In this document: one piece after another, positions 395 through 26,541 of the stretch
Position numbering within the stretch: the first letter of the stretch is position 1
Layout: each line of letters starts with the position of its first letter
Program-made: the position numbers and the translations under genes
The notes under the pieces: model-generated
Told to the model about the DNA's origin: nothing
Seen by the model: the letters and a program-made list of their open reading frames with translations, nothing else
Database searches by the model: none
Assembly: GCA_964543385.1 (NCBI GenBank)
Contig: CAZIYE010000004.1
Span: forward strand, 1 to 32,000
Source: an uncultured Candidatus Saccharibacteria bacterium
Lineage (GTDB): Bacteria > Patescibacteriota > UBA1384 > XYA2-FULL-43-10 > 1-14-0-10-43-13
DNA: 32,000 nucleotides
Reading direction: 5' to 3'

Positions 395-1129
395 TTATTT
401 ATATACTCCCTTTATTATATTCTTTCTAACTCTCCAAGCATCACTTACCATGCGCAAGCCGTCCTTAAGTGGATTTACAGTAGAATGAGGATTATCGTAC
501 CAAACGATTCCAGCCTCCTTGGTTTTATATCCTAACCTCTTGGCAATTGCTAAAATTTCGATATCAAAAGAAAAGCCATTGATAGTTTGGCGTTTAAATA
601 TTTCTTTGGCAGCCTTACCATCAAATAATTTAAATCCACACTGAGTATCTTTTATACCTGATACAGCCAATAATTGTATTATTGCATTTAATCCTCTACT
701 GCCCATAATACGGATGGCTGATTGTGGCACTGCTAGTCTGCCATCTTCGCAGTAACGCGAACCAATAACTACCTCATATTTATCAATATATCTTAGCAAT
801 TTATCTGCCTGCTCAATCGGAGTGGAATTATCAGCATCTGCAAATAGAATATATTTGCCATTTGCCGATAAAATACCTTCTTTAATCGCTCCACCCTTAC
901 CTTTATTGACTTTATTATCGATGACTGTCAAACTTCTTAATTTATCACTGTATGATCTTGCTACTTCTACTGTTTTATCAGGAGAGGCATCTGCGACAAC
1001 TATTGTTTCAATCTTAAAATTCTTCGTTTTTTCGTATTTCGCGATTGCCTCCAATATAATATGGATTCTTTCTTCTTCTTTATATGCCGGAACTATTATG
1101 GAAAGATAAAAATCATTCATTAGGATCAT
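395..1129 (-). CDS. GT2 polyprenol-phosphate sugar synthase (DPM1/ALG5/GtrB-like glycosyltransferase)
   Basis: 244-aa ORF with 'IIVPAYKEEERI' and 'DADNSTP' (DxD) blocks typical of GT2 dolichyl/polyprenyl-phosphate glycosyltransferases. An AGGA-type SD fits the ATG at 1120 better than 1129. It lies 12 nt downstream of the GT-C gene. Confidence 0.85.
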   Translation of the reverse strand: MILMNDFYLSIIVPAYKEEERIHIILEAIAKYEKTKNFKIETIVVADASPDKTVEVARSYSDKLRSLTVIDNKVNKGKGGAIKEGILSANGKYILFADADNSTPIEQADKLLRYIDKYEVVIGSRYCEDGRLAVPQSAIRIMGSRGLNAIIQLLAVSGIKDTQCGFKLFDGKAAKEIFKRQTINGFSFDIEILAIAKRLGYKTKEAGIVWYDNPHSTVNPLKDGLRMVSDAWRVRKNIIKGVYK

Positions 1130-1141
1130 TCCTTTCAGAAA

Positions 1142-2992
1142 TTAGTTTTTTTGAGTATTAAATATCGGATTTCCAATTATGCTGTTTGGCGCAATTACTT
1201 TAGTTATTGGATAGGGCGAGATAGGGGGATTGTTTCTAATATCATCGATAGTAATATTAAAGACCAATATAGATCCGCCAATAATAGCTTTTGGAGTCAT
1301 CTTGTCGAGCCAATGATACGACCACTTACCTTCCTGCTTTCCAACTAGTTTCGATGACTGATAAAAGGTAGCGGAAACCGCCAGCCAGCCTGTAGTAGGA
1401 CCATATTCAGAATGCCACTCGCTTGCCTCTGGAATATAATACTTTGGAACCGATCCGCCAAAATAGTCAACCTTTATATTTTTAATATCATTTTCATCAA
1501 TATATTTTTTTAGTCTTAGTAAATCCTGACCCCAGTCTAAAGACGAATCTATTAAGCGCGTATATCTTTTATCCTTGGGGGTTGCCTCATTAAAATAAGA
1601 GATGAAGTTTGGATAGTTAGAAACAGTGGAGATAATCATATATACAATCAAAACTAAGACGGCCCAACATGAAATATTTTTATATTTACTAGCGAATAGT
1701 TTAGAAATAGTATAGCCGATCAACATAATTACAAACGGAACTGTTGGTATTAAATGGCGGATACCGATATTTAATGATCCCTTTAGAGTAAAAGCCCAAT
1801 ATACAATTATTGGAGTCAGCAGCAGAGTCAATATCCATTTATCTTTCTTGTCTTGTGGCCAAGCAAATATCAACCAAATAGTTGATATTAAAACTAGGAG
1901 AATAATCGGAATTTGTGTCTTTAAAAGCCAAGCAACTGGAAAATACCAAGAGATAGATTTATCCGATGAGTGTCCCATAATGAATGTCTTATTTCCACCT
2001 TCCACCCTGGCGACAACAAGCATAATTCCCAGCGTATAATGCCCCAAACCACGTGCAACTGGATTTGATTCAAATTTATGGGCAAAATTTCTAAGCGGTA
2101 ACGTTTTTGGATCTTGGGTAAGATTAGCCTCAATCAATTTGTGCTCGACATCAGCTGGTGTTTTCCAAACAAACGGTATATAAGCTATCCAGACAAACAG
2201 AACAGATAAGGCACAGACAAAGAAATATGATTTGAAGCCACCCAAGAAACCGGGCCCAAAACCACCTTTTTCTTTTCTATTAATTATTGCCTTAACAATC
2301 ACCATGATTAACAAAATTCCGAAGAGCAAAAACGCCGAAAACTTGAGCAGCTGTGCTAATGCAAAGGCGACGGCTGCTATTAAAATACTCTTCCAAGTAA
2401 ATTTATTTAACGCTCTATCAAAGAAGTAAATTGAAATCACATAGCCAAATGCAGCTGCGATATCTGTGGTTACAAGACGACCATGCGCTAGGACATCCGG
2501 ATAAAAAGCATAAAGAGTAAGGACAATGAGCGCGATCTTGCTGCCAAAAAGTTCTCTAGCCCATTTAAACAAAAACAAGCCAAGTCCAATCATCAGAAGC
2601 ATCATCGGTAATCTTGACCAAAAGAAAACCTCTTTCGGATTATTGCCGTTCTCATAAATCATGAACCAGCCAGCTTCCCATTGATTAATTCCGCTCCAAC
2701 TCCAGTCAGACTCTGGTCCCTTGATACCTTTTAATACCAGAGGAAAACCAGCCAAAGCTTTTGCAAGAGGTGGATGCTCTGGGTTTAATCGAAAATCCTG
2801 ATCGTTAATATAAGTGTAGCCAGAAGGTATATGGGCTATTTCATCAACAGTACCGGAATCCCCCGGATCGCCAAAAGCACCTTTTGAAGAAAAAAATGCC
2901 AAGGAGAACATAAAACCTAAAATAAATATCACCGATGAAGGTACTAGCCACTTTTTGTTTTTAATCATAAAAACATTAATTTTCTGAAACAT
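1142..2992 (-). CDS. GT-C family lipid-carrier-dependent glycosyltransferase (PMT/ArnT-like)
   Basis: 616 aa with many hydrophobic segments. The first loop carries the acidic 'DEIAHIPSGY' motif seen in GT39/GT83 enzymes. A soluble C-terminal domain follows. There is a 1-nt gap to the upstream gene. Confidence 0.8.
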   Translation of the reverse strand: MFQKINVFMIKNKKWLVPSSVIFILGFMFSLAFFSSKGAFGDPGDSGTVDEIAHIPSGYTYINDQDFRLNPEHPPLAKALAGFPLVLKGIKGPESDWSWSGINQWEAGWFMIYENGNNPKEVFFWSRLPMMLLMIGLGLFLFKWARELFGSKIALIVLTLYAFYPDVLAHGRLVTTDIAAAFGYVISIYFFDRALNKFTWKSILIAAVAFALAQLLKFSAFLLFGILLIMVIVKAIINRKEKGGFGPGFLGGFKSYFFVCALSVLFVWIAYIPFVWKTPADVEHKLIEANLTQDPKTLPLRNFAHKFESNPVARGLGHYTLGIMLVVARVEGGNKTFIMGHSSDKSISWYFPVAWLLKTQIPIILLVLISTIWLIFAWPQDKKDKWILTLLLTPIIVYWAFTLKGSLNIGIRHLIPTVPFVIMLIGYTISKLFASKYKNISCWAVLVLIVYMIISTVSNYPNFISYFNEATPKDKRYTRLIDSSLDWGQDLLRLKKYIDENDIKNIKVDYFGGSVPKYYIPEASEWHSEYGPTTGWLAVSATFYQSSKLVGKQEGKWSYHWLDKMTPKAIIGGSILVFNITIDDIRNNPPISPYPITKVIAPNSIIGNPIFNTQKN

Positions 2993-2993
2993 T

Positions 2994-4505
2994 TCATCCC
3001 TCCGATATATTTGACCTTTTTGTTGATTTTACAGTGACTCGAAAAACACCTAAATATTTTCCTGTCATCAATCTTGTCTGAGATTCTAGAGCTGGCAGAG
3101 AAGAAAATATTATGCTCGAAATTGGCATTACAATCGGTGTCATTATCCAGTCAAGGATTATTCTTGAGAAAGGTTTTTTGCCTCGTCTAGGCGGCGCCAA
3201 TAATGTTGAAATCACCAAGGTAGTTATCATGCCAATCCAAGCGATCATTACAAATCTAGTATAAACATAAGGGAAGCTATAGGCCAATATGTCGGTCTGA
3301 AATCTTTGGTCGAAGACAACGGGGACCCAGGCAGAGCTTGCTAAAATCAAAGATGTGGTTGACCAAGAGAGATGAGACTCCCATAGTATCAATGCATTTG
3401 CCCATCGATCGAAGAAAGGTATTTTGTGGTTATTAAACGTATGTTCCATAACATATGGTATATCCGATACACCCCAAGACCAACGTTTCTTTTGCAGATA
3501 TTGTTCTTTCATAGTGGAAGTAAAATCCTCGGCCAAAACCGCATCTTGATAGATTGGCGTATACATCGGAATGACCTCATGTCTACCATTAAACTTATAA
3601 TATGTCCTCCAAAATTGATGACCATCCTCGACTATTGTCTTTGTTGACCAGAAGTCAACTCTAACCAAAGCCTCTAGACTCTGCGCATGAGCAGAAAAAT
3701 TACGAAGTCGCGATGGCCTTGTGGTCACAATCAACTGCCAAAAAGATGAACCCATAGCAATAAGGCGATTCATCATCGGGACATCCCAGATATTATTAAA
3801 AAACATAGGAATGGGCTGAAAACTTTTATGAACGGGGTCGGAATCAGTGACATATTTATATGTTAGGTCAGCCAAATATTGTTTGTCGAATATATTATCA
3901 GCATCCATGGTGGTGACGATGACATTTTCGTATTTGATACCATTTTCATCAAAATACTTGACTATCTGTCTAGCGGCATAAGTAATGTTACCACCCTTGC
4001 CAATAACTTCGCCAGGGATATCTTTTGGGTGCATAATAGACTCAAAATGACCAAGCTTAGCACTAAATTCTTTCTTTAAAATTTGAGCGTATTCAGTAGC
4101 CCTCTCCTTATCACGCTCCTCTGTAGCTAAAACATATACGATGTTTTCTGAGGGAAAACTAGAATTGATTACAGACTGGACCGATGATCTTAGTATTTCT
4201 ATGTCTTCTTTATAGGTAGGAACTATAACTAGATGGTGGATTCTTTTCCATGAATTTTCGGGAGTAACTTCATTTAGTTTCTTCAGCCAATTGGTCTTAC
4301 GATCTTTTTTGTAATGTGTATATCCTACAATAAGGCGATATGACATAAAGAAAGTTTTTACCAACCAAAAACTGATAAAAAATGTCATATAAATTGCAAA
4401 CGATGAGGGAGAAATAGCGGCTAAAATAATTGGCAAAAAGATAATTAGCCAGGCTAACAGGCCAGGTAATATTTCAAATAATCTTTTATATTTCCATGGT
4501 TTCAT
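2994..4505 (-). CDS. Membrane-embedded processive GT2 beta-glycan synthase-like protein
   Basis: 503 aa. TM segments flank a GT2 core with 'VIVPTYKED', 'TTMDADN' (DxD), 'VEDG' and 'QKKRWSWG' (QxxRW). These are hallmarks of the cellulose/chitin/PNAG synthase class. ATGA overlap with the upstream small ORF. Confidence 0.8.
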   Translation of the reverse strand: MKPWKYKRLFEILPGLLAWLIIFLPIILAAISPSSFAIYMTFFISFWLVKTFFMSYRLIVGYTHYKKDRKTNWLKKLNEVTPENSWKRIHHLVIVPTYKEDIEILRSSVQSVINSSFPSENIVYVLATEERDKERATEYAQILKKEFSAKLGHFESIMHPKDIPGEVIGKGGNITYAARQIVKYFDENGIKYENVIVTTMDADNIFDKQYLADLTYKYVTDSDPVHKSFQPIPMFFNNIWDVPMMNRLIAMGSSFWQLIVTTRPSRLRNFSAHAQSLEALVRVDFWSTKTIVEDGHQFWRTYYKFNGRHEVIPMYTPIYQDAVLAEDFTSTMKEQYLQKKRWSWGVSDIPYVMEHTFNNHKIPFFDRWANALILWESHLSWSTTSLILASSAWVPVVFDQRFQTDILAYSFPYVYTRFVMIAWIGMITTLVISTLLAPPRRGKKPFSRIILDWIMTPIVMPISSIIFSSLPALESQTRLMTGKYLGVFRVTVKSTKRSNISEG

Positions 4506-4837
4506 GCTGTGTGTACTAAATAAAATATTTCTAATATAAATATTAAAATTCCAACTATTATATTGCCCATCAAGAGCAGATAACCAACTTCTTTTTCTTT
4601 ATCATGCGCAGAAATTGAGAGCAAAGTATTCAAAATCATAATAATAGCGAGGTATTTTATAGGATAAATGTCGATCCGCAAAAGCACATAGACAGTTTCT
4701 CCAACAAAAAATGATTGCCAAATAAAATAGTCAATCAGAAACAAGATAATACTGGAAATCAAAAGGTAACGGTCTAACACATCGTCAAAGAGTGCTTCCT
4801 TCAGGAAGGAGTATGAATTTGTAATATATTGTTTCAT
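4502..4837 (-). CDS. Small integral membrane protein (about 3 TM), first gene of the glycosylation operon
   Basis: 111-aa ORF, strongly hydrophobic. Its TGA stop overlaps the ATG of the next gene (ATGA). No family recognised. Confidence 0.6.
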   Translation of the reverse strand: MKQYITNSYSFLKEALFDDVLDRYLLISSIILFLIDYFIWQSFFVGETVYVLLRIDIYPIKYLAIIMILNTLLSISAHDKEKEVGYLLLMGNIIVGILIFILEIFYLVHTA

Positions 4838-4849
4838 GTAGCTTATTAT

Positions 4850-4925
4850 TGGAGCCGATAGGCGGATTCGAACCGCCGACCTCTTCTTTACGAAAGAATT
4901 GCTCTACCAGCTGAGCTATATCGGC
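4850..4925 (-). tRNA. tRNA-Thr (anticodon CGU), CCA encoded
   Basis: The reverse complement folds as a cloverleaf. Acceptor gccgata/tatcggc, D stem gctc/gagc, anticodon loop tt-CGT-aa, T arm ggcgg-ttcgaat-ccgcc, then t+cca. 76 nt. Confidence 0.9.
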
Positions 4926-4926
4926 A

Positions 4927-5000
4927 TGGAGCGGGTAACGGGAATCGAACCCGTGACTCATCCTTGGGAAGGACGCATTTTACCACTAAACCATACCCGC
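4927..5000 (-). tRNA. tRNA-Gly (anticodon CCC), CCA encoded
   Basis: Reverse complement has acceptor gcgggta/tacccgc, anticodon stem cgtcc/ggatg, loop tt-CCC-aa, T arm acggg-ttcgatt-cccgt, then t+cca. 74 nt. Only 1 nt separates it from tRNA-Thr. Confidence 0.9.
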
Positions 5001-5080
5001 AAAATAGCTCTTCTAAGAATAGAATTTACCACTTATCATGGAAAATAACAACTAATATGGCCTATTTTTAATCGATGTCC

Positions 5081-5983
5081 TCACCTTATACTATCGTTAA
5101 ATCTCTGGAAAAAACTACGATAAAAATCTGGATTTCGCAGATTACACCGCAAATTGACCATATCAGTATCTTCGGATGTCAAGATGGGATTTATAACATC
5201 CTGCTTTTCTAATAAATAGTACATTATGGAATCATCATCAAAAGCATGGTCAAGGCCTATTGCATGGCCCAGCTCATGCATAAAGACAAGTCTTAATTCC
5301 TGAGTATTGCCGAAAGTGAATATCTCAATCTTATTCTCTGCCGGCTTGTATAGTCCTTGAGTAATAATCAAATTTTTCCGATCATTAACAATATTTTCCA
5401 AATTCTTTAAATCCGAATTATAATCTTCAACATTAAGGTTGAATGTCTTCGACATCGATATCAACTGATCATTTCGCTTGTCTAGATCAATTCTGGTCTT
5501 TTCTAACTGAGAGTATATTTTATCAGGAGCGCCTCCCTGGCTATTCCAATATGATACCTGTTTATTGTACTCATTTAGATCTGATTGAAAGTCACGAAGA
5601 AGTTGGTCAAATTTACTGCTAGCAGTTTCCACTGACTTACGGTTGGTTTCGAGATTCTGTGTTGCAAGATTCAAACGATCTATTTCTGCCTGCCTCTCAT
5701 CGTATATCAGATCTATTTTAAGTTTTGACTTATCATTGTATGTTAGTAACTTTTTGCCAGCATGATCATTCCATCGGCTAGCAGCATCTTTGGCCACTTG
5801 CTCAACAGAGTCTGCAGAGATATTAAAGCGCGAGTCCACATTGCCGATGCTGAAAGTTCTAGTCTCATTGCATTTTTTACTTAAATAAAAAACAAAGGCC
5901 GATAAAGACACTAATAATATCAATATTACAGCCAGAGGAAAAAGTATAAACGCTTGTTTTTGATTATTTATCACCTTTGTCAT
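5081..5983 (-). CDS. Membrane-anchored metzincin (matrixin/M10-like zinc metalloprotease) with an internal coiled-coil segment
   Basis: 300 aa. N-terminal TM anchor. 'HELGHAIGLDH' (HExxHxxGxxH) is followed by a 'SIMYY' Met-turn. About 110 aa of heptad-like, Asn/Gln/Lys-rich sequence lies between the N-terminal sheet-like part and the active-site helix. Confidence 0.8.
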   Translation of the reverse strand: MTKVINNQKQAFILFPLAVILILLVSLSAFVFYLSKKCNETRTFSIGNVDSRFNISADSVEQVAKDAASRWNDHAGKKLLTYNDKSKLKIDLIYDERQAEIDRLNLATQNLETNRKSVETASSKFDQLLRDFQSDLNEYNKQVSYWNSQGGAPDKIYSQLEKTRIDLDKRNDQLISMSKTFNLNVEDYNSDLKNLENIVNDRKNLIITQGLYKPAENKIEIFTFGNTQELRLVFMHELGHAIGLDHAFDDDSIMYYLLEKQDVINPILTSEDTDMVNLRCNLRNPDFYRSFFQRFNDSIR

Positions 5984-6142
5984 AATCCGAATTATTACAG
6001 ATCTTATTTTTTATTATTATGCCATTAATTTTTAAATTAATCGATGCTACTGGCCTGTTCTAGATCAAAATATTAAAACAGCAAACAGATTCCGGCATTG
6101 ATTTTTGATAGTGATAGTGTTATTATATCTATGATAATTTGC

Positions 6143-6219
6143 GGGGTCGTAGTTCAGTTGGTTAGAACGCCACACTGTCACTGTGGAGGTCGCCGGTTCG
6201 AGCCCGGTCGATCCCGCCA
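6143..6219 (+). tRNA. tRNA-Asp (anticodon GUC), CCA encoded
   Basis: Acceptor ggggtcg/cgatccc, D arm gttc-agttggtta-gaac, anticodon stem ccaca/tgtgg with loop ct-GTC-ac, T arm gccgg-ttcgagc-ccggt, discriminator g, cca. 77 nt. Confidence 0.9.
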
Positions 6220-9233: not shown

Positions 9234-10529
9234 ATGTCAAAAATTGCACAGATTGTGGCTAGAGAAATTTTAGATTCTCGAGGCAATCCTACAGTAGAAG
9301 TAGATTTAACACTGGATGATGGCTCTTTCGGCCGATCTGCAGTTCCATCAGGTGCTTCAACTGGAAGTTACGAAGCAGTCGAATTACGTGATGGCGGAAC
9401 AAGATACATGGGCAAAGGAGTAGAGACTGCCATAAATAATGTAAATAATATTCTAAAACAAGAATTGGTCGGCAAGGAATTCAATCAGGAATTGATCGAT
9501 GAAACTATGATTGCAATTGACGGGACTGAGAACAAGGGCAGACTAGGAGCAAACGCAATCTTGGGGGTTTCCATGGCCTTTTCACACGCCCAAGCAAAAA
9601 GCCAAGGCATTTCATTATATAAGTATTTTGAGAAAATAGCCGAGACTGGCAAGGAAATCAGATTGCCGGTGCCAATGATGAATATATTAAACGGCGGAAA
9701 ACATGCGGAGAATTCAACCGACCTACAGGAATTCATGATTATGCCTGCCGGAGCACCATCTTTTAAGGAAGCGCTTAGATATGGCACTGAGGTATTTCAT
9801 AATTTGAAAAAAATTCTAGCAGCTAAAGGCCTAAACACATCAGTCGGCGACGAAGGCGGTTTTGCACCAGCTCTTCCTTCTAACGAAGCTGCTCTAGAAG
9901 TTATTGTCGAAGCCATAACGAAAGCTGGTTATGTACCAGGCAAGGATATTTATATTGCTATCGACGGTGCTGCGACAGAGCTTTACGAGGATGGGAAATA
10001 TAACCTGGCGACCGAAGGCAAAAAGCTTACAAGTGAGGAAATGATTGATTTATACGCATCATGGCTTCAAAAATATCCGATTATCTCCATTGAAGATGGC
10101 TTGTCAGAGGATGACTGGGCTGGGTATGAATTATTCACACAAAGACTTGGTGACAAAGTTCAAATCGTTGGTGATGATCTATTCGTTACGAATATTAAAA
10201 GACTTCAAGATGGCATTAAAAGAAACGCTGCAAACTCAATCCTTATCAAACTAAACCAGATTGGCACAGTCTCAGAAACTATTAAGGCTATAAAGATGGC
10301 AAATGAGGCCGGTTTTACATCAATTGTTTCTCATCGTTCCGGCGAGACCGAAGATCCAACAATCGCTGATTTTGTAGTAGGACTTGCCAGTGGACAGATA
10401 AAAACTGGATCGCTTTGCCGATCAGAAAGAATCTGCAAATATAATCAACTCTTAAGAATCGAAGAAGAACTGGGAGATAAAGCTATTTATCCTGGTTTGA
10501 ATGCTTTTAATTTTTCCAAAATCAATTAA
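9234..10529 (+). CDS. eno: Enolase (phosphopyruvate hydratase)
   Basis: [23 protein letters not shown]..., SHRSGETED and the rest align with canonical enolase. AGGAG SD at 9225-9229 supports ATG 9234 rather than the track start at 9192. Confidence 0.95.
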
Positions 10530-10540
10530 AAAATAAATCT

Positions 10541-12061
10541 ATGAATAAAGACAGGAATAAGGTTATTTTAATTGTGCTCGATGGTTGGGGATATCAGGAA
10601 GAAAAAGAACACAATGCAATCGCCGAGGCAAAAACGCCATATTTTGATAATCTATGGAACAATTACCCTCATGCACTCTTAGAAGCAAGTGGCGAAGCAG
10701 TAGGATTACCAGATGGACAAATGGGCAACAGTGAAGTCGGCCATACTATAATTGGTGCAGGAAAAGTGGTCTATACAGATTTTGCAAAGATATCTAAAGC
10801 TGTAAAAGAAAATGATTTCGAGAATAATGCCTCTTTTATTGATTTATTTAACCATGTAAAACAACATGATTCTGTCCTTCATATTAAGGGCCTGGTAAGT
10901 CCTGGTGGGGTGCATAGTCATAGCCAACATCTCTACGCGTTTCTAAAAGCAGCTAAAAAATTTGGGGTCGAGAAAGTTGCAATACACGCCTTTACCGATG
11001 GTCGAGATACTCCACCCAAAAGTGCACATGAATATCTAAAAGAACTAGAAGATATCATAGAACATATAGGGATCGGTTTTATAGCAACCGCTTCCGGACG
11101 CTTCTACGCAATGGACAGAGATAACAATTGGGATAGATTGAAAAAGGTCGAAGACGCAATTTTTGAAGGTAAAGGTAAGAGCTCTAAGGGCCAGAAGCCA
11201 TCAGATGTTGTCAAGGGGTTACACAGTGAAGGTATCGTTGATGAACATATAGAACCAATTATATTCTTGGATGATCTAGGCAATAGTTACCAAGTCAGAG
11301 ATAATGACGGCATATTCTTTTTCAATTTTAGAAAAGATCGATCAAGGATGATGACCCAGAGAATAATCGAAAGAAAAGATCAGCAAAATCTTTTTCTTGT
11401 TACCATGACTCAGTATGATAACAATTTTAATTGCTCTATTGCTTTTTCTCCCGAAGAAATCACAACAACTCTAGGCAATGAAATCTCCAAATCTGGCCTA
11501 AAACAGGCTCATATCGCAGAAACAGAAAAGTTTGCTCATTGTACATATTACCTAAACGGCGGCAGACAAGAGCCATATGATGGCGAGAAACAAATATTAG
11601 TTGAAAGTCGAAAAGATATTAGCACCCATGACCAGGCACCCGAGATGAGGGCAAAAGAAATTACTGAGGAAATATTGCATTCTATTGCCGACAGCACCGA
11701 CTTCATTTTTGTCAATTATGCAAATCCAGATATGATCGGACATACCGGCAACAAGAATGCGATTATAAAAGCCATAGAATGTGTTGATTGTGAGATCAAT
11801 AAAGTAGTAAATGCTGCGTTAAAAAATGACTTTGATATTATTATCACCGCTGATCACGGCAACGCCGAGGTAAATTTTGATAAGATCTCAAATCAAAATC
11901 ATACTGCTCATACCATAAACCCTGTCCCAATTATCTATATCAGCAGAAAAAACTCAAAGATCTCGAACGGAGCACTTTATGATATAGCACCAACAGTCTT
12001 GAAACTCCTACATATAGAAAAACCAGAATCTATGACTGGAGAAAATATAATCAAACACTAA
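10541..12061 (+). CDS. gpmI: 2,3-bisphosphoglycerate-independent phosphoglycerate mutase
   Basis: 506 aa. 'LIVLDGWG', 'GNSEVGH', 'TADHGNAE' motifs of iPGM. 11 nt after eno. Confidence 0.95.
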   Translation: MNKDRNKVILIVLDGWGYQEEKEHNAIAEAKTPYFDNLWNNYPHALLEASGEAVGLPDGQMGNSEVGHTIIGAGKVVYTDFAKISKAVKENDFENNASFIDLFNHVKQHDSVLHIKGLVSPGGVHSHSQHLYAFLKAAKKFGVEKVAIHAFTDGRDTPPKSAHEYLKELEDIIEHIGIGFIATASGRFYAMDRDNNWDRLKKVEDAIFEGKGKSSKGQKPSDVVKGLHSEGIVDEHIEPIIFLDDLGNSYQVRDNDGIFFFNFRKDRSRMMTQRIIERKDQQNLFLVTMTQYDNNFNCSIAFSPEEITTTLGNEISKSGLKQAHIAETEKFAHCTYYLNGGRQEPYDGEKQILVESRKDISTHDQAPEMRAKEITEEILHSIADSTDFIFVNYANPDMIGHTGNKNAIIKAIECVDCEINKVVNAALKNDFDIIITADHGNAEVNFDKISNQNHTAHTINPVPIIYISRKNSKISNGALYDIAPTVLKLLHIEKPESMTGENIIKH

Positions 12062-19267: not shown

Positions 19268-19474
19268 TTATGCTCCCGTTTCTAAAGCCGTTAAAATCAA
19301 TACTGAGGACATGATTATCACTATGGAAATAACTGAATATAAAATAATAATAACTTTTGATAAATCGCCAGAATACCCAAATCTCCAGAGATGGTAGATA
19401 CCGAAAAGGCTGAAGATTATATAGGCGAATAGAAATAGTCCGTAAAAGAAGAAAAGGAGATTAAATGAATTCAT
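19268..19474 (-). CDS. Small 2-TM membrane protein
   Basis: 68 aa, hydrophobic. ATGA overlap with the queH stop. 1 nt before the next gene. Confidence 0.5.
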   Translation of the reverse strand: MNSFNLLFFFYGLFLFAYIIFSLFGIYHLWRFGYSGDLSKVIIILYSVISIVIIMSSVLILTALETGA

Positions 19475-21173: not shown

Positions 21174-21758
21174 TTACTTCGCTGATAAGTTTTTTAAACA
21201 CCACCGAACTCTTTCTTCGGTGGAGATTATATCGGATGGGATTTTACTAACCAACCCCTGTATTTCTGATTTTTTATAGCCCAAAGATTGCATTGCATCC
21301 ATTAAATCATCTGCTTCATCAATTTTCCCGATGACGTTAATGCTTTTATCAGAAGATATTTTTGATTTAAGATCAAGGATTATTTTGGCTGCTACTTTCT
21401 TACCTATTCCAGAAATTGCAGTAAAGAAACTCATGTCATCGCTGATTATTGCATGAAGAATTTTATCTGTCCCCGCATAGCTCATAATATTTAAACCAGC
21501 TTTTGGACCGACACCATTAACAGAAATCAATTTCTCAAATAACTCTAATTCTTGGTAGCTCAAAAAACCATAAAAATCATCGGCATCCTCCCTGATATGC
21601 TCATAGATATATAGCTCTACATCTTCTCGCGTATCGACGATGTTATTCTTTATTTTGATTTGCGGATTGACAAAAACTTTATAACCGACTCCTCTAGTTT
21701 CCAGGATAATAAGACCCCATTTAAATAAAACTACTCTACCTTTTAGATAAGAAATCAT
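21174..21758 (-). CDS. ruvA: Holliday junction DNA-binding protein RuvA
   Basis: 194 aa. 'MISYLKGRV...GVGYKV', HhH 'LISVNGVGPKAGLNIMS' and 'ISGIGKKVAAKII'. Its ATG directly abuts the upstream stop (TAAATG). Confidence 0.9.
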   Translation of the reverse strand: MISYLKGRVVLFKWGLIILETRGVGYKVFVNPQIKIKNNIVDTREDVELYIYEHIREDADDFYGFLSYQELELFEKLISVNGVGPKAGLNIMSYAGTDKILHAIISDDMSFFTAISGIGKKVAAKIILDLKSKISSDKSINVIGKIDEADDLMDAMQSLGYKKSEIQGLVSKIPSDIISTEERVRWCLKNLSAK

Positions 21759-22763
21759 TTATTTGTCCTTCTTGGTTTCAGGAAAAGCAATATCTAGTAT
21801 ATCTCCTGCGACATTTCGAGACTCACCCTCGTAAGGGAAATGATGCATAAATATTCCAGGACTTGAGTTTATCTCCACAATAATGTGATTGTCGGGTGTT
21901 TGCTCTACTGTAATATCCCTTGAAAGAAAATCCATGCCGCCATAGGCAAGGCCGGGGATTGCCTTAATTACTTTTACTGCAATTTCGTGCACTGAAGGAT
22001 GAACCTTATCGGTAAAATCGATGCTGTCACCCCCAGTTGAAAGATTGGAATTTTCACGCAGGAATACTTGTTCGCCAGCTTGCGGCTTATAATTGATGTC
22101 TCTGTTAGACTTTTTTAATGTTTCAATAACAATGTCATCTATATCAATTTTTACGAGGCATTTTTTAAAATCCTTATATGAGTCATCACCTCTTCTGGGA
22201 TCAGAATTTTTAATCTCCACTAATTCTTTTATTGTGTGGATGCCATCGCCGATCACATTAGCAGGAACACGATTAGTAATTCCCAGTACTTTGTCCTGAC
22301 TAGCAACTACTCGATACTCCGTACCGCCATCAAAATAGCGCTCGACAAGAATATTATTGAATTTAATTGATACTTTCTGCCAGTGTTTAATAAAATCATC
22401 CTCGTCGGCAATATTTGCAAAAACACAATTTCCATGACTTGAATTTGTCGGTTTAATAACAACCGGATATCCTATTTTCTTTGCAAAGGCCAGCGCTTCA
22501 TCTAACTGCATTTTGGTAAATTTTTCGCCTTCGGCTATTGATAGGCCAGCCTCTTTTAGAACCTGCTTCGTCAAATTCTTATTGTTAACTAACTCATAAG
22601 CAACCGATGTTGTTTTGGAAATAAATTGGCAACACAGGTATTCTTCATGACCTCCATAGCTTAGTTTGGCAACTTTTCCTGGGCATAAGTCATCTACCTT
22701 GACACCACGTTTATTTGCTTCATTAACAATGATCTGAGTTGAGATTGTATAATTTTCTTTCAT
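21759..22763 (-). CDS. Stand-alone ATP-grasp ligase, GshF C-terminal / cyanophycin synthetase G-domain type (paralog B)
   Basis: 334 aa. 'YPVVIKPTNSSHGNCVF', 'RVPANVIGDGIHTIKELVEIKNSDPRRG', 'FLRENSNLSTGGDSIDFTDKVHPS', 'GGMDFL', 'VEINSSPGIFMHHFP'. Confidence 0.8.
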   Translation of the reverse strand: MKENYTISTQIIVNEANKRGVKVDDLCPGKVAKLSYGGHEEYLCCQFISKTTSVAYELVNNKNLTKQVLKEAGLSIAEGEKFTKMQLDEALAFAKKIGYPVVIKPTNSSHGNCVFANIADEDDFIKHWQKVSIKFNNILVERYFDGGTEYRVVASQDKVLGITNRVPANVIGDGIHTIKELVEIKNSDPRRGDDSYKDFKKCLVKIDIDDIVIETLKKSNRDINYKPQAGEQVFLRENSNLSTGGDSIDFTDKVHPSVHEIAVKVIKAIPGLAYGGMDFLSRDITVEQTPDNHIIVEINSSPGIFMHHFPYEGESRNVAGDILDIAFPETKKDK

Positions 22764-22770
22764 TCTTTAC

Positions 22771-23751
22771 CTATTTAATTGTTTCTGGAAAATTGACATC
22801 GATAATTGCTGACGCAATATCAACCGGTTTGCCAATCGTTGGCTGATGGTGCAAAGCAATTCCAGGAATAGAATTTACTTCGATCACAACATAATTATCT
22901 TTATTCTGAAGTTTGGTGATATCTTTTGTCATAAAATCAACCCCGCCATATTGCAAACCTGGTATTGCCTCAATAGCTTTCCTGGATATCTCTAAAACTG
23001 AAGGGTGTGCAATTTCATTACAGTCAAGACTTTCACCCCCTGTAGCAATATTAGAGTTTTCACGTAAGAATATTTGTTCATCCTTTTTTGGGATATAGTC
23101 TAAATCGTGTCCTTCTTTCTTAATCGTTCCGCGCACAACATCATCAATTACAATTTGTGCTAGTGGTGTAAGACCGGGGCCTCGTCTAGGATCCTGATTT
23201 TTTATGCCGATAAGTTCGCGCAGATTGTGAGTACCGTCACCAACTACATTAGCAGGAATTCGGTGTATGACAGATAGAGATTTATCTCTGGTAGCGAATA
23301 CGCGGTATTCTTTGCCAATAAACATCTTTTCAACAATAATTTCGCTATATTTTTGGCCAATTTTTTTCCAGGCAGATAAAAACTGCTCCTTGTCCGATAT
23401 GTTTGGAAACACAAGATCACCTTCCATGCCGGTAGTTGGCTTTACCACAACTGGCCAACCATTTTTTTCCACGTATGACAAAGCTTCATAGATTTGATCA
23501 TTTAAGAAATTCATGCCTTTAGGGACTTCAACCCCTGCTTCCTCGAGCAACATTTTTGTAAAATTTTTGTTCAGGCAAAACTTCGAAGCAAGTGCAGTCG
23601 TTTTAGATGAAAGAGTTTCATTGAAATACTCTTTATGTCCTTGATACTCCAAAACAAAGTAGTCCCTATGGTAAAATCTGACACTTATTCCCCGCTTTAT
23701 TGCTTCATCTGTGACATATTTGACTGCCAAACGCATGACTTTGTGACTCAT
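22771..23751 (-). CDS. Stand-alone ATP-grasp ligase, GshF C-terminal / cyanophycin synthetase G-domain type (paralog A)
   Basis: 326 aa. Alignable end-to-end with paralog B ('RIPANVVGDGTHNLRELIGIKNQDPRRG', 'FLRENSNIATGGESLD', 'GGVDFM', 'EVNSIPGIALHH', 'FPET'). AAGGAG SD upstream of the ATG at 23751. Confidence 0.8.
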   Translation of the reverse strand: MSHKVMRLAVKYVTDEAIKRGISVRFYHRDYFVLEYQGHKEYFNETLSSKTTALASKFCLNKNFTKMLLEEAGVEVPKGMNFLNDQIYEALSYVEKNGWPVVVKPTTGMEGDLVFPNISDKEQFLSAWKKIGQKYSEIIVEKMFIGKEYRVFATRDKSLSVIHRIPANVVGDGTHNLRELIGIKNQDPRRGPGLTPLAQIVIDDVVRGTIKKEGHDLDYIPKKDEQIFLRENSNIATGGESLDCNEIAHPSVLEISRKAIEAIPGLQYGGVDFMTKDITKLQNKDNYVVIEVNSIPGIALHHQPTIGKPVDIASAIIDVNFPETIK

Positions 23752-23839
23752 CAGTACTCCTTTTTGTTGTCTTATTTCTCTCTTATCAAGATAACGGTAA
23801 TGACCGCTTAAATCAAGTGATTTATCTTATTGCTTAGGG

Positions 23840-23868
23840 TTGAAAAAGTTAGGAAAATATTGTATAGT
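23840..23868 (+). promoter_or_regulatory. Candidate sigma-70 promoter for the PGM1-like ligase gene
   Basis: TTGAAA (23840-23845), 17-nt spacer, TATAGT (23863-23868) preceded by TG. Located in the divergent intergenic region. Confidence 0.4.
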
Positions 23869-23928
23869 TTTGGCTTACTCTATATCAAAAAGCTTGCCCT
23901 TAAGGGCCAAATAGTGGACAATACAATT

Positions 23929-25488
23929 ATGAAAACCGAAGAGCAGATAATCTTTTCGAATCTTCAAAAAAGATTGAAAAAAAATAAGAAGCTTTCTAAC
24001 TACAATTATCGTGGCGAAAGAACTTTTGTAGTTGTCTCGGGCTTAAATTCTGACAAATTTAACCTTTCAAAAGTTAAGGGCTTAAGATTTTATGAAGAGA
24101 GAATGTTGTTTATCCTTTTTCTTCTCAAATATAAGAATACGAAGATTGTATATGTAACTTCTGATAATTTTGACACCACTCTATTCGATTATTATCTAGG
24201 CTTGATATCAGGCAAGCCAAAAGAGATTGCCGATATGAAATCAAGATTGACCCATATTCAGGTAAAAGACAGCCAGCACCTGAGTCTTACCGAAAAGCTA
24301 TACAATTCTCATGCCGCTCTCAAAAGAATTGCTAAGGCTATTACAAATGAAAAGACCACCGTTTTACGTTGCTATAATCCAACTATTCTTGAAAGAAAAT
24401 TAGCAGTAAGAATTGGTATACCCCTCTTCGGATCTGCCGAGAAATTTGATTACGTTGGCAGTAAAAGTGGCGGACGCAAGGTATTTAAATTAGCCGACCT
24501 AAATGTCATCCCCGGAATTACTAGCTTGAAAAGTTTTACTGAACTTTATGGGGCAATCGCGAAATTAATGAGAGACTACCCAAAGTTCAAGAAATTGGTA
24601 ATTAAACTTGAACAGGGTGCTTCTGGTAGGGGGAATTGTCTCTTTTCTGTAGAAGATTTTTTGAATGACAATGATATCGAGATTTCTATTAGAACAGATC
24701 TGGCCAAACTCACCTCTTTAATCAAAAAGAATTTCCATAAATATTGCAGGTTAGAAGCGGATGACTTAGAGATAGAGAGATATATCAGGGAATTCAATAG
24801 GATTGGCGGCATAGTTGAGGGTTATGTCGATGGAAAAATAAAATATTCTCCTAGCGCACAGTTGTTTTTATCGACAGAAGGAAAAGTCTCTATTGCTTCT
24901 ACCCATGAGCAAATTCTCGGTGGTTCTGACGGTCAAAAATATCTTGGCTGTACATTTCCGGCTTTGGACGTTCATCGCAAGCTAGTTATTCGAGAGGCCA
25001 AAAAAGTCGGTGACTGGATGATAAAGAAGGGTATGGTTGGTCATTTCTCGATTGATTTTGTTACGGTTCAGTCAAATGAGTTAGAAATACCGAAGATATA
25101 CCCAATTGAGATAAATTTACGTAAAGGCGGCACAACTCATCCTTTTAGAATTGCTTACTATCTGACTAAATCAAAATATAATAAGCGGGACGGCATTTTA
25201 TACTGTGGCAAAACTCCAATTTATTATATGGCCAGAGATATCGTAGAATCAGAGAAATACAAAGTTTTATCATCATCCGAGCTGATTAAGATGATTGATA
25301 AGAGCAAAATTAGTTTCAATAAAAATACCAAAAAAGGCGTTATGGTCTATATGCCAGGAATGATCTCGGAGTATGGAAGATTTGGCGCATTATCGGTTGG
25401 CCATACCAAAGAGGAAGCAGAAGAATACTTTAAAAAACTTATAAAAGCTATCAACCTACACTCTAATAGAAAAATAAATAAAATTTAG
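23929..25488 (+). CDS. PGM1-type peptide ligase (pre-ATP-grasp + ATP-grasp domains)
   Basis: N-terminal 'FVVVSGLNSD...LRFYEERMLFILFLLKYKNTKIVYVTS...FDYYLGLISG' and C-terminal 'VIKLEQGASGRGN', 'GHFSIDFV', 'IEINLRKGGTTHPF' resemble the PGM1-related ligase family. The start is ATG 23929 or in-frame GTG 23914. The track start at 23830 is a TTG upstream of the predicted promoter. Confidence 0.7.
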   Translation: MKTEEQIIFSNLQKRLKKNKKLSNYNYRGERTFVVVSGLNSDKFNLSKVKGLRFYEERMLFILFLLKYKNTKIVYVTSDNFDTTLFDYYLGLISGKPKEIADMKSRLTHIQVKDSQHLSLTEKLYNSHAALKRIAKAITNEKTTVLRCYNPTILERKLAVRIGIPLFGSAEKFDYVGSKSGGRKVFKLADLNVIPGITSLKSFTELYGAIAKLMRDYPKFKKLVIKLEQGASGRGNCLFSVEDFLNDNDIEISIRTDLAKLTSLIKKNFHKYCRLEADDLEIERYIREFNRIGGIVEGYVDGKIKYSPSAQLFLSTEGKVSIASTHEQILGGSDGQKYLGCTFPALDVHRKLVIREAKKVGDWMIKKGMVGHFSIDFVTVQSNELEIPKIYPIEINLRKGGTTHPFRIAYYLTKSKYNKRDGILYCGKTPIYYMARDIVESEKYKVLSSSELIKMIDKSKISFNKNTKKGVMVYMPGMISEYGRFGALSVGHTKEEAEEYFKKLIKAINLHSNRKINKI

Positions 25489-25519
25489 TGACTTTTCGAT
25501 AAGTGATAAGCTGCTAAGA

Positions 25520-26509
25520 CTAAGATCTCCCCTTTAAATACTCTGCGGCTTCTTCTGGCGGCATAGTATTGATGACAATATCGCTACTCAACTCAAAACC
25601 ACCGTATCTAGAGACTCTTGGCACAATTTCAATATGCCAATGGTACGAATCGGAGTTCTCGTGAATCGTTGGCAATGTATGGATGTAAAAGTTTAGAGGT
25701 GGGTTTTCTAGGGTTTTGTCGATCATTTGGAAAACAGTGGTCAAAGCATCTGCACAATCTTTCATATAAGTTTTTGAAGTATTCTCGAACTGACTTTCGT
25801 GTTTTTTGGGCATAACCCAGGTCTCAAAAGGAAATCTAGGTGCATAAAAATTGAAGGCGATGAAGTGCTCATTTTCATATACAACTCTGATTTTTTCTTT
25901 GATCTCATGATGAATAATATCGCAGTAAACACAAGCCCCATTTATGCCATAGTAGCGGTCTGCGCCCTCTAACTCTCTGCCGACTTCATTTGTTACAATT
26001 CCTGAAGCAAATATCTGAGCATGCGGATGATCGATAGATGCTCCAGCTTCGGCCCCATGATTGTAGATAGGAACAATAGAGGCAACTTTCTCATGCTCTT
26101 TCATCCATAGATATCTTTCTCTTATAACCTCAAGGACTTCATCCATGAGAGATTTACTAAACTTCAATAATGGGGTTGTGTGATCTTTTATGATAATTAC
26201 TTCGTGATCCCCCACGGAGGCACGTGCGCGATAAAAACCCTCTTCAGGATAAAAACTTCTGATTGATTTTTTGGATTCATCTTCAACAAAAGCCGGAAAA
26301 CGATTCTCAACTACATAAACATTCTCTGTTTCATATTTCATGTGAGCTTTATTCTGTTTGTATCCTACAGAATCCACACAAAATGGACAGTTATCCTTAT
26401 TAGAAACTTTCACACTTTTTGGAATAACGAAATCTTTTGGACGCTTTGCTCTTTCTGGCGCTACGACTACCCAATCACCAGTTATGATATTTTGTCTTAG
26501 TTCTGGCAT
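25520..26509 (-). CDS. galT: Galactose-1-phosphate uridylyltransferase-like (HIT superfamily, GalT type) nucleotidyltransferase
   Basis: 'CPFC' zinc motif near the N-terminus and 'HPHAQIF' (HxHxQ) active site. GGAGGG SD supports the ATG at 26509 (MPELRQN...) over the track TTG at 26524. Confidence 0.8.
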   Translation of the reverse strand: MPELRQNIITGDWVVVAPERAKRPKDFVIPKSVKVSNKDNCPFCVDSVGYKQNKAHMKYETENVYVVENRFPAFVEDESKKSIRSFYPEEGFYRARASVGDHEVIIIKDHTTPLLKFSKSLMDEVLEVIRERYLWMKEHEKVASIVPIYNHGAEAGASIDHPHAQIFASGIVTNEVGRELEGADRYYGINGACVYCDIIHHEIKEKIRVVYENEHFIAFNFYAPRFPFETWVMPKKHESQFENTSKTYMKDCADALTTVFQMIDKTLENPPLNFYIHTLPTIHENSDSYHWHIEIVPRVSRYGGFELSSDIVINTMPPEEAAEYLKGRS

Positions 26510-26541
26510 CTTCCCTCCGATCAAATTTTCAATTTTATTTT

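Follow-up and report, generated by a model that had tools for sequence, protein, structure and literature searches.

A BesA/PGM1-related ligase gene beside divergent ATP-grasp ligases in Saccharibacteria: a candidate cassette for a short peptide

Introduction

What could a bacterium with a minimal genome be making with three ATP-dependent ligases that are encoded side by side? This question is raised by a 32,000-nucleotide stretch of DNA from an uncultured Candidatus Saccharibacteria bacterium (contig CAZIYE010000004.1, called the window below), in which a gene for a ligase related to BesA and PGM1, here named PGM1L, is transcribed divergently from two further ATP-grasp ligase genes, AG1 and AG2. 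ATP-grasp ligases phosphorylate a carboxylate to an acyl-phosphate, which is then attacked by the amine of an amino acid or peptide. The genomes of Patescibacteria are very small, and most building blocks are presumed to come from outside the cell. Since such genomes spend two to three ATP-dependent ligases on this cassette, its product should be needed by the cells.

A preliminary description of the window, made from the sequence without database searches, had placed PGM1L in the PGM1 family and had proposed that the three ligases serve one pathway, in which PGM1L joins the product of the paralogous pair AG1/AG2 to another carboxylate or peptide. Here, we analyze the gene, its partners and its surroundings by means of profile searches, structure prediction and comparison of loci. 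The linkage with ATP-grasp ligases is found in all 13 loci compared from one clade, the nearest characterised relative of PGM1L is BesA, and we lean, with modest confidence, towards a ribosome-independent ligase set that makes a short peptide or isopeptide.

Linkage of PGM1L with ATP-grasp ligases

The three ligase genes of the window and the parts of PGM1L are the following.

23929..25488, plus strand: PGM1L, coding sequence of a BesA/PGM1-related ATP-grasp carboxylate-amine ligase of 519 aa (open reading frame and public gene calls)
23929..24438, plus strand: N-terminal alpha/beta domain of PGM1L, approximately residues 1-170 (secondary structure of the AlphaFold (AF2) model; boundary estimated)
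24451..25182, plus strand: ATP-grasp core of PGM1L, residues 175-418 (Pfam envelope and invariant residues)
25303..25431, plus strand: C-terminal PGM1_C-like segment of PGM1L, residues 459-501 (PF18105, below the Pfam threshold)
22771..23751, minus strand: AG1, stand-alone CphA-G/GshF-C-type ATP-grasp ligase of 326 aa in the slot proximal to PGM1L (NCBIfam and PDB matches)
21759..22763, minus strand: AG2, second stand-alone CphA-G/GshF-C-type ligase, 334 aa (NCBIfam and PDB matches, neighbor-joining tree)

The comparison covers at least 13 distinct clade loci with upstream DNA, whose PGM1L proteins are 50-86% identical to that of the window. The loci counted are the window, L003, L004, L005, L006, L007, L014, L016, L018, L022, L025, L026 and L027. 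In all 13 of them PGM1L divergently adjoins at least one ATP-grasp ligase gene, and the partners are distributed as follows.

Window, L003, L018, L007, L014 and L022: two CphA-G/GshF-C-type genes
L004, L025, L026 and L027: RimK-type and one CphA-G-type gene
L006: RimK-type and two CphA-G-type genes
L016: RimK-type gene only
L005: one CphA-G-type gene only

The proximal slot is thus taken by either a CphA-G-type or a RimK-type gene, with RimK-type genes present in six loci. In the neighbor-joining tree AG2 is the conserved orthologue, found in 12 of the 13 loci, and the AG1-type genes are divergent paralogues in the slot that is held elsewhere by the RimK-type gene. The cassette stays intact also where its flanks are rearranged: in L006 and L022 it stands between ruvC and a sugar-nucleotide block, L014 has an inverted comEC-ruvC block, and L004 has none of the usual flanking genes. 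While the genes that separate ruvA from the ligases differ freely from locus to locus, the junction of the ligases with PGM1L is constant.

Outside the clade we compared five distinct loci (L008, L009 and L011, with relatives of 35-38% identity, L012 with one of 42%, and L030 from Robbsia with one of 25%), and these show no ATP-grasp partner and no common neighbourhood. With 13 of 13 loci inside the clade and none of five outside it, the association with ligases is real but clade-specific. The co-localisation with GshF/CphA-type ligases, on which the preliminary description had staked its proposal, thus holds within the clade. The single pathway that it proposed gains from the linkage in all 13 loci, those with rearranged flanks included, and loses from the five outside loci without partners. 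Its GshF-like pair is a fitting description of the window-like loci with two CphA-G-type genes, but not of the six with a RimK-type gene or the two with a single partner.

The gene family is known and already carries generic names, so the family assignment is not new. In the literature we found no paper that treats the BesA/PGM1-related family in Patescibacteria, and no description of a PGM1L cassette with CphA-G-type or RimK-type ligases. What is new here is such a cassette, fixed in a clade of Saccharibacteria/Patescibacteria and standing without a ribosomal precursor or natural-product genes.

Family placement and catalytic residues

PGM1L matches the Pfam model ATP-grasp_IQCH (PF24923) over residues 175-418 with 90.3 bits against a cut-off of 27, covering positions 6-264 of 266. 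The PGM1_C model (PF18105) gives 18 bits, with a cut-off of 22.5 and an E-value of 0.002, and the PreAtp-grasp model of Pfam gives no match; the pre-ATP-grasp and PGM1_C domains that the preliminary description expected are thus seen by the profiles only as a sub-threshold PGM1_C hit. This PGM1_C domain is, on the other hand, recorded in most PGM1L homologs. The only NCBIfam match is the BesA equivalog NF042917, with 114.8 bits over positions 7-427 of 432. As the cut-off is 750 bits, PGM1L is not a BesA equivalog. The genes of the bes pathway (halogenase, pyridoxal-phosphate enzyme, oxidase and hydroxylase) are not among the neighbours of PGM1L, which are ATP-grasp ligases, a galT-like gene, ruvA/B/C, yebC and others.

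Searches of the PDB point in the same direction. With the single sequence, the sole match among all PDB sequences is BesA (8yi6, 2.9e-27), and two family profiles, A1 and A2, find it at 3e-47 and 8e-63. PGM1 is absent from these sequence matches even at permissive limits of E<=1 (A1 and the single sequence) and E<=10 (A2), so that neither profile reaches it. The AF2 model of PGM1L, built on 60 homologs, has a mean predicted local distance difference test score (pLDDT) of 93.6 and a predicted template-modelling score (pTM) of 0.90. In a Foldseek search of the PDB with this model, evaluated by the target-normalised TM-score (TMt), the best hit is BesA (E 6e-30, TMt 0.88, 24% identity). It is followed by the Streptomyces ATP-grasp peptide ligases 8ynd and 8ynq together with PGM1 (3wvq/3wvr) at E ~1e-17 and TMt ~0.77, with 13-15% identity to this group and 14-15% to PGM1 itself; the whole PGM1L model aligns to PGM1 over ~500 columns. 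Generic biotin carboxylases and PurK come after these at TM ~0.5.

On the basis of these rankings and the model, PGM1L is taken to belong to the fold family that holds PGM1, with BesA as the nearest characterised relative. The earlier assignment to the PGM1 family is hence right as to the shared fold of a three-part ligase, although of the three domains the profiles see the ATP-grasp core above threshold, PGM1_C below it and PreAtp-grasp not at all; it does not carry over to the sequence level, where BesA is the closer enzyme. Relatives with 35-38% identity over 97-98% of the length (E ~1e-94 to 1e-99) do bear the name "peptide ligase PGM1-related protein", although no NCBIfam model for that name matched PGM1L.

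BesA is the L-propargylglycine--L-glutamate ligase of Streptomyces cattleya and a full-length homolog of PGM1L with 24-25% identity, the same three-part architecture and all of the family-invariant catalytic residues. It acts on free amino acids and joins propargylglycine to the gamma-carboxylate of glutamate (bioRxiv 10.1101/2025.10.10.681649), whereas PGM1 joins a core peptide to a non-proteinogenic acid (PMC8939145). PGM1L differs from BesA in being ~45 residues longer and in its partners, and the substrates are for these reasons almost certainly different. From PGM1, with which it shares the fold family and a PGM1_C-like segment, it differs in having neither a precursor-peptide gene nor genes for a non-proteinogenic acid beside it.

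The catalytic apparatus appears complete. An alignment of 65 proteins (60 homologs, BesA and four other plasmid-borne relatives) has 23 positions that are identical in all 65 members, BesA included, and PGM1L keeps every one of them. The invariant set includes K179, K226, G235, E297, P308-S309, H326, Q328, G340, F343-P344, D376, E394, N396 and R398. The core residues K179 and K226, E297, the triad D376, E394 and N396, and R398 we take to be the ATP-binding lysines, the hinge glutamate, the Mg-binding D/E-E-N triad and the catalytic arginine, respectively; the Gly-rich loop GASGRGN is counted with these residues as invariant in the 65 members. As all invariant residues are kept, PGM1L should be an intact and active ligase, judged from its sequence. 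One of the four plasmid-borne relatives, a Robbsia homolog that stands in an amidinotransferase/aldehyde-dehydrogenase cluster, has the same residues, which are therefore signs of the catalytic scaffold and tell nothing about a particular substrate; an inference of the substrate from residues shared with BesA was rejected on this ground.

In the AF2 model, the strands 31-36, 71-78, 107-112 and 144-148 of the N-terminal domain alternate with helices, and the hidden Markov model alignment with BesA begins at residue 33-35. According to the model, this domain corresponds in structure to the pre-ATP-grasp domain that BesA and PGM1 have. The length of ~520 aa in the preliminary description agrees with the 519 aa found, and the peptide blocks that it quoted (VVVSGLNSD, FYEERMLFILFLLKY, KIVYVTS, DYYLGL, GASGRGN, GHFSIDFV and EINLRKGGTTHPF) all occur in the translation.

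The partner ligases

AG1 and AG2 are 46% identical to each other. In the cyanophycin synthetase model TIGR02068 they score 267 and 309 bits with a cut-off of 850, the AG1 match covering positions 163-473 of 862, and in the GshF model NF002688 they score 215 and 255 bits with a cut-off of 425 and match only positions 429-755 (430-754 of 756 for AG1). Among PDB sequences they find the G domain of CphA1 at 1.6e-51 and 7e-53, and they match the ATP-grasp half of the N-acetylglutaminylglutamine amide (NAGGN) synthetase TIGR03103 with 140-162 bits. The whole G domain of CphA1 can thus be aligned, but the two proteins have 326 and 334 aa as compared to 862-929 aa, and the N and M domains of CphA as well as the GshA domain of GshF are missing. 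These absences and the scores below the cut-offs indicate that AG1 and AG2 are neither cyanophycin synthetases nor GshF.

The RimK-type partners in the six loci match TIGR00768 with 113-132 bits, which is below the curated cut-off, and give weak glutathione-synthase and GSH-S_ATP matches. The RimK and Ngg families add Glu or Gln to the C-terminal carboxylate of small molecules or proteins. The cassette ligases resemble these families in their TIGR00768 and TIGR03103 matches, and they differ from them in scores that stay under the cut-offs, in the lack of a GNAT domain, and in a context without S6, F420 or methanopterin.

Stand-alone proteins like AG1 and AG2 are widespread in Patescibacteria. 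In two other Patescibacteria (L028:5153-10032 and L029:3997-10020) an AG2-type gene ends an operon of a PKD + 7TM_transglut membrane protein, an ATPgrasp_ST/TIGR02291 ligase fused to a retropepsin, and RimK; yebC-ruvC adjoin it and a PBP1 gene follows. Iyer et al. reportedly described in 2009, as predicted peptide-synthesis systems, operons in which several ATP-grasp genes, among these the TIGR02291 ligase, are combined with a retropepsin and a 7TM-transglutaminase-type protein. The operons of L028 and L029 share with the PGM1L cassette the AG2-type ligase, the number of three ATP-grasp ligases and the adjacent ruvC/yebC, while neither the membrane protein nor the TIGR02291 ligase nor the retropepsin occurs in the PGM1L loci. 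PGM1L has no significant sequence similarity to the TIGR02291 ligase. Orthology of the cassette RimK-type genes with the RimK of these operons was also considered and rejected, the identity being only 23%. A combination of several ligases is a recurrent theme, of which the PGM1L cassette appears to be a lineage-specific variant.

It should be noted that proteins consisting of the G domain only are publicly labelled "cyanophycin synthetase", as is AG1 in IMG, and caution is due with this name. A 2026 preprint lists "cyanophycin synthetase" without cyanophycinase in 5 of 21 Ca. Lutisaccharimonas metagenome-assembled genomes; these genes could be over-annotations of the same type, and mislabelled cyanophycin synthetases may already enter metabolic reconstructions of Saccharimonadia.

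Proposed product and alternatives

Because PGM1L always stands beside further ATP-grasp ligases in the clade loci, they probably build a small peptide jointly, and the reading that we prefer by a narrow balance of probability is a ribosome-independent ligase set that makes a short peptide or isopeptide. The known reaction of CphA-G, GshF-C, Ngg and RimK-type enzymes is the addition of Asp, Gly, Gln or Glu to a C-terminal alpha-carboxylate, as in glutathione, cyanophycin, NAGGN, N-acetylaspartylglutamate (NAAG) and the tails of ribosomal protein S6, and PGM1 caps peptide N-termini. In the proposed mechanism, the two sides of the cassette would be transcribed from back-to-back promoters, and the ligases would build stepwise a probably Glu- or Asp-rich peptide or isopeptide of ~3-4 residues. 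Further residues would be added at the C-terminal alpha-carboxylate by the AG and RimK-type enzymes, and PGM1L would make a non-standard bond, which may be a gamma-glutamyl-type side-chain amide that starts the chain, or a cap. We infer the one shared product, the order of the steps and the nature of the product by analogy with known ligase systems. The earlier suggestion, by which another carboxylate or peptide would be joined to the product of the paralogous pair by PGM1L, may also fit the data.

The logic is that of glutathione synthesis by GshA and GshB or by the fused GshF, where a gamma-glutamyl dipeptide is made first and a second ATP-grasp enzyme adds the C-terminal residue. A small product is favoured for several reasons. 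The minimal loci L005 and L016, with exactly two ligases, mirror the two-step synthesis of glutathione. The exchange of CphA-G-type for RimK-type genes in one slot parallels the two non-orthologous glutathione synthetases, the AG-type partners corresponding to the ligase domain of GshF and the RimK-type ones to the other known solution. Finally, hydrolases of small amides are fused to members of the family, and a carboxypeptidase-like gene lies in the operon of L004. The cassette departs from glutathione synthesis in that it has no GshA domain or gene, that the GshF scores stay below 425, and that most loci have three ligases; by this comparison there is no indication of Cys or Gly as substrates. 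A more specific form of the proposal is tentative and must be called fairly unlikely: a gamma-glutamyl peptide, analogous to glutathione or a peptide osmolyte, made by stand-alone ATP-grasp ligases and in some lineages linked to a sugar by the MshA-like GT4. There, the BesA-like enzyme would stand in for glutamate-cysteine ligase, and the "synthetase" step would fall interchangeably to CphA-G-type or RimK-type enzymes.

A number of observations weigh against a short peptide made by the three ligases together. All 13 loci fall in one 50%-identity cluster, which means that common descent accounts for part of the conserved adjacency, and the solitary homologs outside the clade show that the family needs no ATP-grasp partners. 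On their strand the AG genes form one continuous row with ruvA/ruvB, and in such compact genomes membership of an operon says little about function. The invariant residues, being shared family-wide and with the secondary-metabolite homolog of Robbsia, do not identify the substrate. Moreover, a gene of the sugar-1-phosphate nucleotidylyltransferase type is near or next to the cassette in 13 of 13 loci, and GT4 glycosyltransferases occur in the ligase operon of five (L018, L005, L014, L016 and L026), so the product might be a glycoconjugate and not a free peptide.

If that last point is taken as the main clue, the ligases would aminoacylate a sugar-containing molecule, such as a glycoside like mycothiol or bacillithiol, or an envelope glycan. 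Beside the nucleotidylyltransferase-type genes, which have three unrelated forms, this agrees with the GT4 of L018, which is nearest to MshA, with PGM/PMM genes in four loci and a PHP phosphoesterase-like gene in one, and with a PIG-L deacetylase and a sortase lying two genes and one gene upstream of the 133-aa open reading frame that precedes the 42% relative in L012. However, the cassettes of the window and seven other loci have no glycosyltransferase, and genes for a flippase, a polyprenyl-phosphate transferase or an exporter are missing. These genomes are also commonly furnished with sugar-nucleotide genes, the count of 13 of 13 being given without a background frequency, and the much stronger conservation of GalT (67-88%, compared to 50-86% for PGM1L) fits a housekeeping gene; a glycoconjugate seems to us quite improbable. 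Somewhat less improbable, but unlikely nonetheless, is the modification of a protein by a C-terminal Glu/Asp tail, in the style of RimK on S6 or TTL on tubulin and with a carboxypeptidase as eraser, or else a cyanophycin-like branched polyamide, with PGM1L in place of the M domain of CphA. The RimK-type partners in six loci and the equivalence of AG1 and AG2 to the chain-extending G domain of CphA1 would suit such a product, as would the MATCAP-family carboxypeptidase-like gene in the L004 operon, the WD40 propellers fused to some family members, and the company of AG2-type genes elsewhere, namely RimK, the TIGR02291-retropepsin fusion and the 7TM-transglutaminase-type membrane protein. BesA, too, activates a side-chain carboxylate (bioRxiv 10.1101/2025.10.10.681649). 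A protein tail or polyamide conflicts, on the other hand, with the missing N and M domains of CphA and the absence of a cyanophycinase from the loci; nor can a target protein, a primer or a polymer-handling domain be identified there, and the fused hydrolases (PepT-like and AstE/AspA) act on small substrates.

The adjacency could also be inherited gene order, with PGM1L acting alone like its solitary relatives in Bacteroidota and Myxococcota. The single 50%-identity cluster, the 35-42% relatives without ATP-grasp partner or common neighbourhood, and the ruvA/B/C, yebC and comEC flanks, which are syntenic in most loci as well, speak for this. What makes it unlikely, and distinctly so, is that the cassette holds where the flanks are rearranged (L004, L006, L014 and L022), that the gene content between ruvA and the ligases changes but never the junction with PGM1L, and that a non-orthologous ligase, RimK-type or AG1-type, replaces the partner in the same position and orientation. 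Such a replacement in the same slot argues for selection for having a ligase there. The least probable of the readings, to which we give very little weight, is a ligase of the strict PGM1 kind, by which ribosomal peptides would receive at their N-terminus a non-proteinogenic acid or the product of the paralogous pair, as in pheganomycin. The whole-model alignment to 3wvq/3wvr, the weak PGM1_C match and the names of the relatives are in its favour, and PGM1 itself does join a core peptide to a non-proteinogenic acid (PMC8939145). Yet the identity to PGM1 is 14-15%, the family profiles never retrieve it, and BesA, with free amino acids as substrates, is much closer; neither flank has a conserved small open reading frame, although a precursor might be encoded elsewhere, and genes for a non-proteinogenic acid are found in 0 of 13 loci.

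Returning to the short peptide or isopeptide, its possible roles are those of redox buffer, osmolyte, chelator, or tag on the cell surface or on proteins. Taken together, the gene order and family matches make the cassette what appears to be a solid lead to a small molecule in organisms of minimal metabolism. It would also give a first functional handle on the BesA/PGM1-related family, which has ~1,000 clusters at E<=1e-10 and of which only a few enzymes, from Streptomyces natural-product pathways, are known to have been studied.

The wider family

An exhaustive phmmer search of 1.84 billion cluster representatives gives 1905 proteins with E<=1e-3, of which 1011 reach E<=1e-10 and 296 reach E<=1e-30. 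The entire Patescibacteria clade is one 50%-identity cluster in this set, and its next relatives have 42% and 39% identity. They are followed by a large group of ~520-aa proteins with 35-38% identity from Bacteroidota, Myxococcota and others, which are publicly named "peptide ligase PGM1-related protein" or "carboxylate-amine ligase". Fusions occur with a PepT-like M20 tripeptidase (TIGR01883, 283 bits, above the cut-off), with an AstE/AspA-type deacylase and with WD40 propellers. The fused members (P0252, P0392, P0264, P0310, P0284, P0309, P0368 and P0119) are 27-37% identical to PGM1L, and ligase-hydrolase fusions recur among BesA/PGM1-related ligases.

Two of the distant relatives have conspicuous surroundings. 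On the Robbsia andropogonis plasmid p3 (L030:7959-9431) a "peptide ligase PGM1-related protein" of 25% identity is found with an SDR oxidoreductase (short-chain dehydrogenase/reductase), an aldehyde dehydrogenase and an inosamine-phosphate amidinotransferase; further upstream, past an IS5 transposase, there are ectB and a PurD-like ATP-grasp gene. From its gene content, this looks like an amidino-pseudopeptide natural-product cluster. In L012 (6093-9530), the PIG-L deacetylase, the sortase and the 133-aa frame precede the 42% relative on one strand, and Pfam finds nothing for the 133-aa protein.

Gene start and divergent intergenic region

We now consider the DNA between PGM1L and its partners, in which the following elements are placed.

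23840..23868, plus strand: likely PGM1L promoter, TTGAAA (23840-23845), 17 nt, TATAGT (23863-23868) (scan 10/12 and conservation)
23788..23816, minus strand: likely promoter of the divergent ligase operon, TTGATT (23816..23811), 17 nt, TATCTT (23793..23788) (conserved blocks)
23763..23757, minus strand: Shine-Dalgarno sequence AAAGGAG of the first ligase gene (sequence)

The longest frame of PGM1L opens at TTG 23830 and runs to 25488 on the plus strand (552 aa). The ATG at 23929, which gives 519 aa, is almost certainly the true start by the public gene calls, the N-termini of L003 and L018, and the position of TTG 23830 upstream of the promoter hexamers. The exact 519-aa product (P0001) is found in public gene calls on three contigs; its N-terminus MKTEEQIIFSNLQ has the same letters in L003, and the L018 protein begins at the aligned ATG. 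A start at TTG 23830 was accordingly discarded, as it overlaps or precedes the promoter and the homologs begin at ATG. The preliminary description had let the gene begin at 23840, but this is the -35 hexamer, and the coding sequence begins at 23929.

The divergent region (23752-23928) has 177 bp, the length given before, and the downstream gap (25489-25519) has 31 bp. The promoter claimed for PGM1L, TTGAAA-17-TATAGT, is present. A three-way alignment of the window, L003 and L018 shows its hexamers and the 17-nt spacing to be kept in both other loci, with a diverged spacer in L018, and the other, more distant loci have a sigma-70-like pair of their own at the equivalent place. The region does not, however, contain more promoter-like sites than expected by chance (12 compared to 16.3 +/- 4.1 in shuffles). 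An argument from site counts was dropped for this reason, and the promoter call is made because the hexamers and their spacing are conserved. On the minus-strand side, the same alignment has the conserved blocks TTAAATCAAG and AAGATAAC, which are likely to be the promoter of the ligase operon. From the two hexamer pairs, transcription is predicted to start at ~23875 on the plus strand and ~23781 on the minus strand.

The small open reading frames in the divergent region are a 24-aa TTG frame (23840-23914) and a 30-aa minus-strand frame. The former overlaps the PGM1L promoter and meets a stop after ~10 codons in L003. A precursor peptide in the flanks was thus rejected: comparison across loci reveals no conserved precursor-peptide frame in the two flanks, 23752-23928 and 25489-25519, in agreement with the preliminary description, which had seen no plausible one. 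A regulatory RNA in the 5' untranslated region was rejected likewise, the consensus fold having 4 pairs and -0.3 kcal/mol, and the Rfam matches in the window are three tRNAs and nothing else.

Downstream on the minus strand (window 21758-23751), AG2 begins 7 bp past AG1 and ruvA follows directly with a gap of 0 bp; the same strand runs on from ruvA into ruvB, queH and queA. Given this tight co-directional packing, the divergent promoter may also drive the Holliday-junction and queuosine genes.

Neighbouring genes

The genes that carry the sugar-nucleotide signal are listed here.

25520..26524, minus strand: GalT-type HIT nucleotidyltransferase with an HPHAQ motif, convergent with PGM1L (TIGR00209 galT)
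L006:9645-10736 and L022:5235-6278: ManC-type genes
L004:3738-4481: small NTP_transferase

These are the three unrelated forms mentioned above: GalT-type, ManC-type in L006 and L022, and the small NTP_transferase in L004. The GalT-type gene of the window matches TIGR00209 with 123 bits (cut-off 102). A gene of this type is the next one downstream of PGM1L in 10 of the 13 loci, as well as in L023, which is truncated at the 5' end. It is a frequent neighbour whose membership in the module is uncertain. The GT4 of L018 (4466-5734, minus strand) is closest to the mycothiol enzyme MshA with 313 bits, against a cut-off of 462. A PGM/PMM gene is found beside GT4 in four of the five GT4 loci, among them L005, L016 and L026, and the PHP phosphoesterase-like gene is that of L016 (4645-5829).

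In L014 the GalT-type gene stays with PGM1L despite the inverted comEC-ruvC block, and the ligase operon there has a 325-aa gene besides GT4. Between PGM1L and the GalT-type gene of this locus lies a class-I glutamine amidotransferase/Peptidase_C26-like gene (9571-10578, minus strand), which could supply ammonia for amidation or be a gamma-glutamyl hydrolase. In L004, a 498-aa MATCAP/DUF1704-type carboxypeptidase-like gene (4474-5970, minus strand; PF08014 6e-22, TIGR02421 QEGLA 5e-21) ends the RimK-type/CphA-G-type operon that diverges from PGM1L, and it is possible, judging by these matches, that this locus pairs the ligases with a C-terminal "eraser". No genes for a non-proteinogenic acid were found in the 13 loci, and a search with PADLOC for a role in anti-phage defence gave no match for the three ligases of the window.

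The window as a whole, which Logan contigs match identically, has ~37% GC and is gene-dense, with queA, queH, ruvA/B/C, yebC, comEC and grpE. Between the gene of a bPH_2 membrane protein and queH there is a hydrophobic 68-aa open reading frame (19268-19474, minus strand), which has counterparts of 66-69 aa in the same position in L014, L025 and L027 and is probably a real small membrane protein. Further away, the minus strand encodes a GT2 glycosyltransferase, a PMT_2-type membrane glycosyltransferase and a 503-aa protein (395-4505), as well as a matrixin-like (Peptidase_M10) protein (5081-5983), and the tRNAs for Thr, Gly and Asp lie within 4850-6219.

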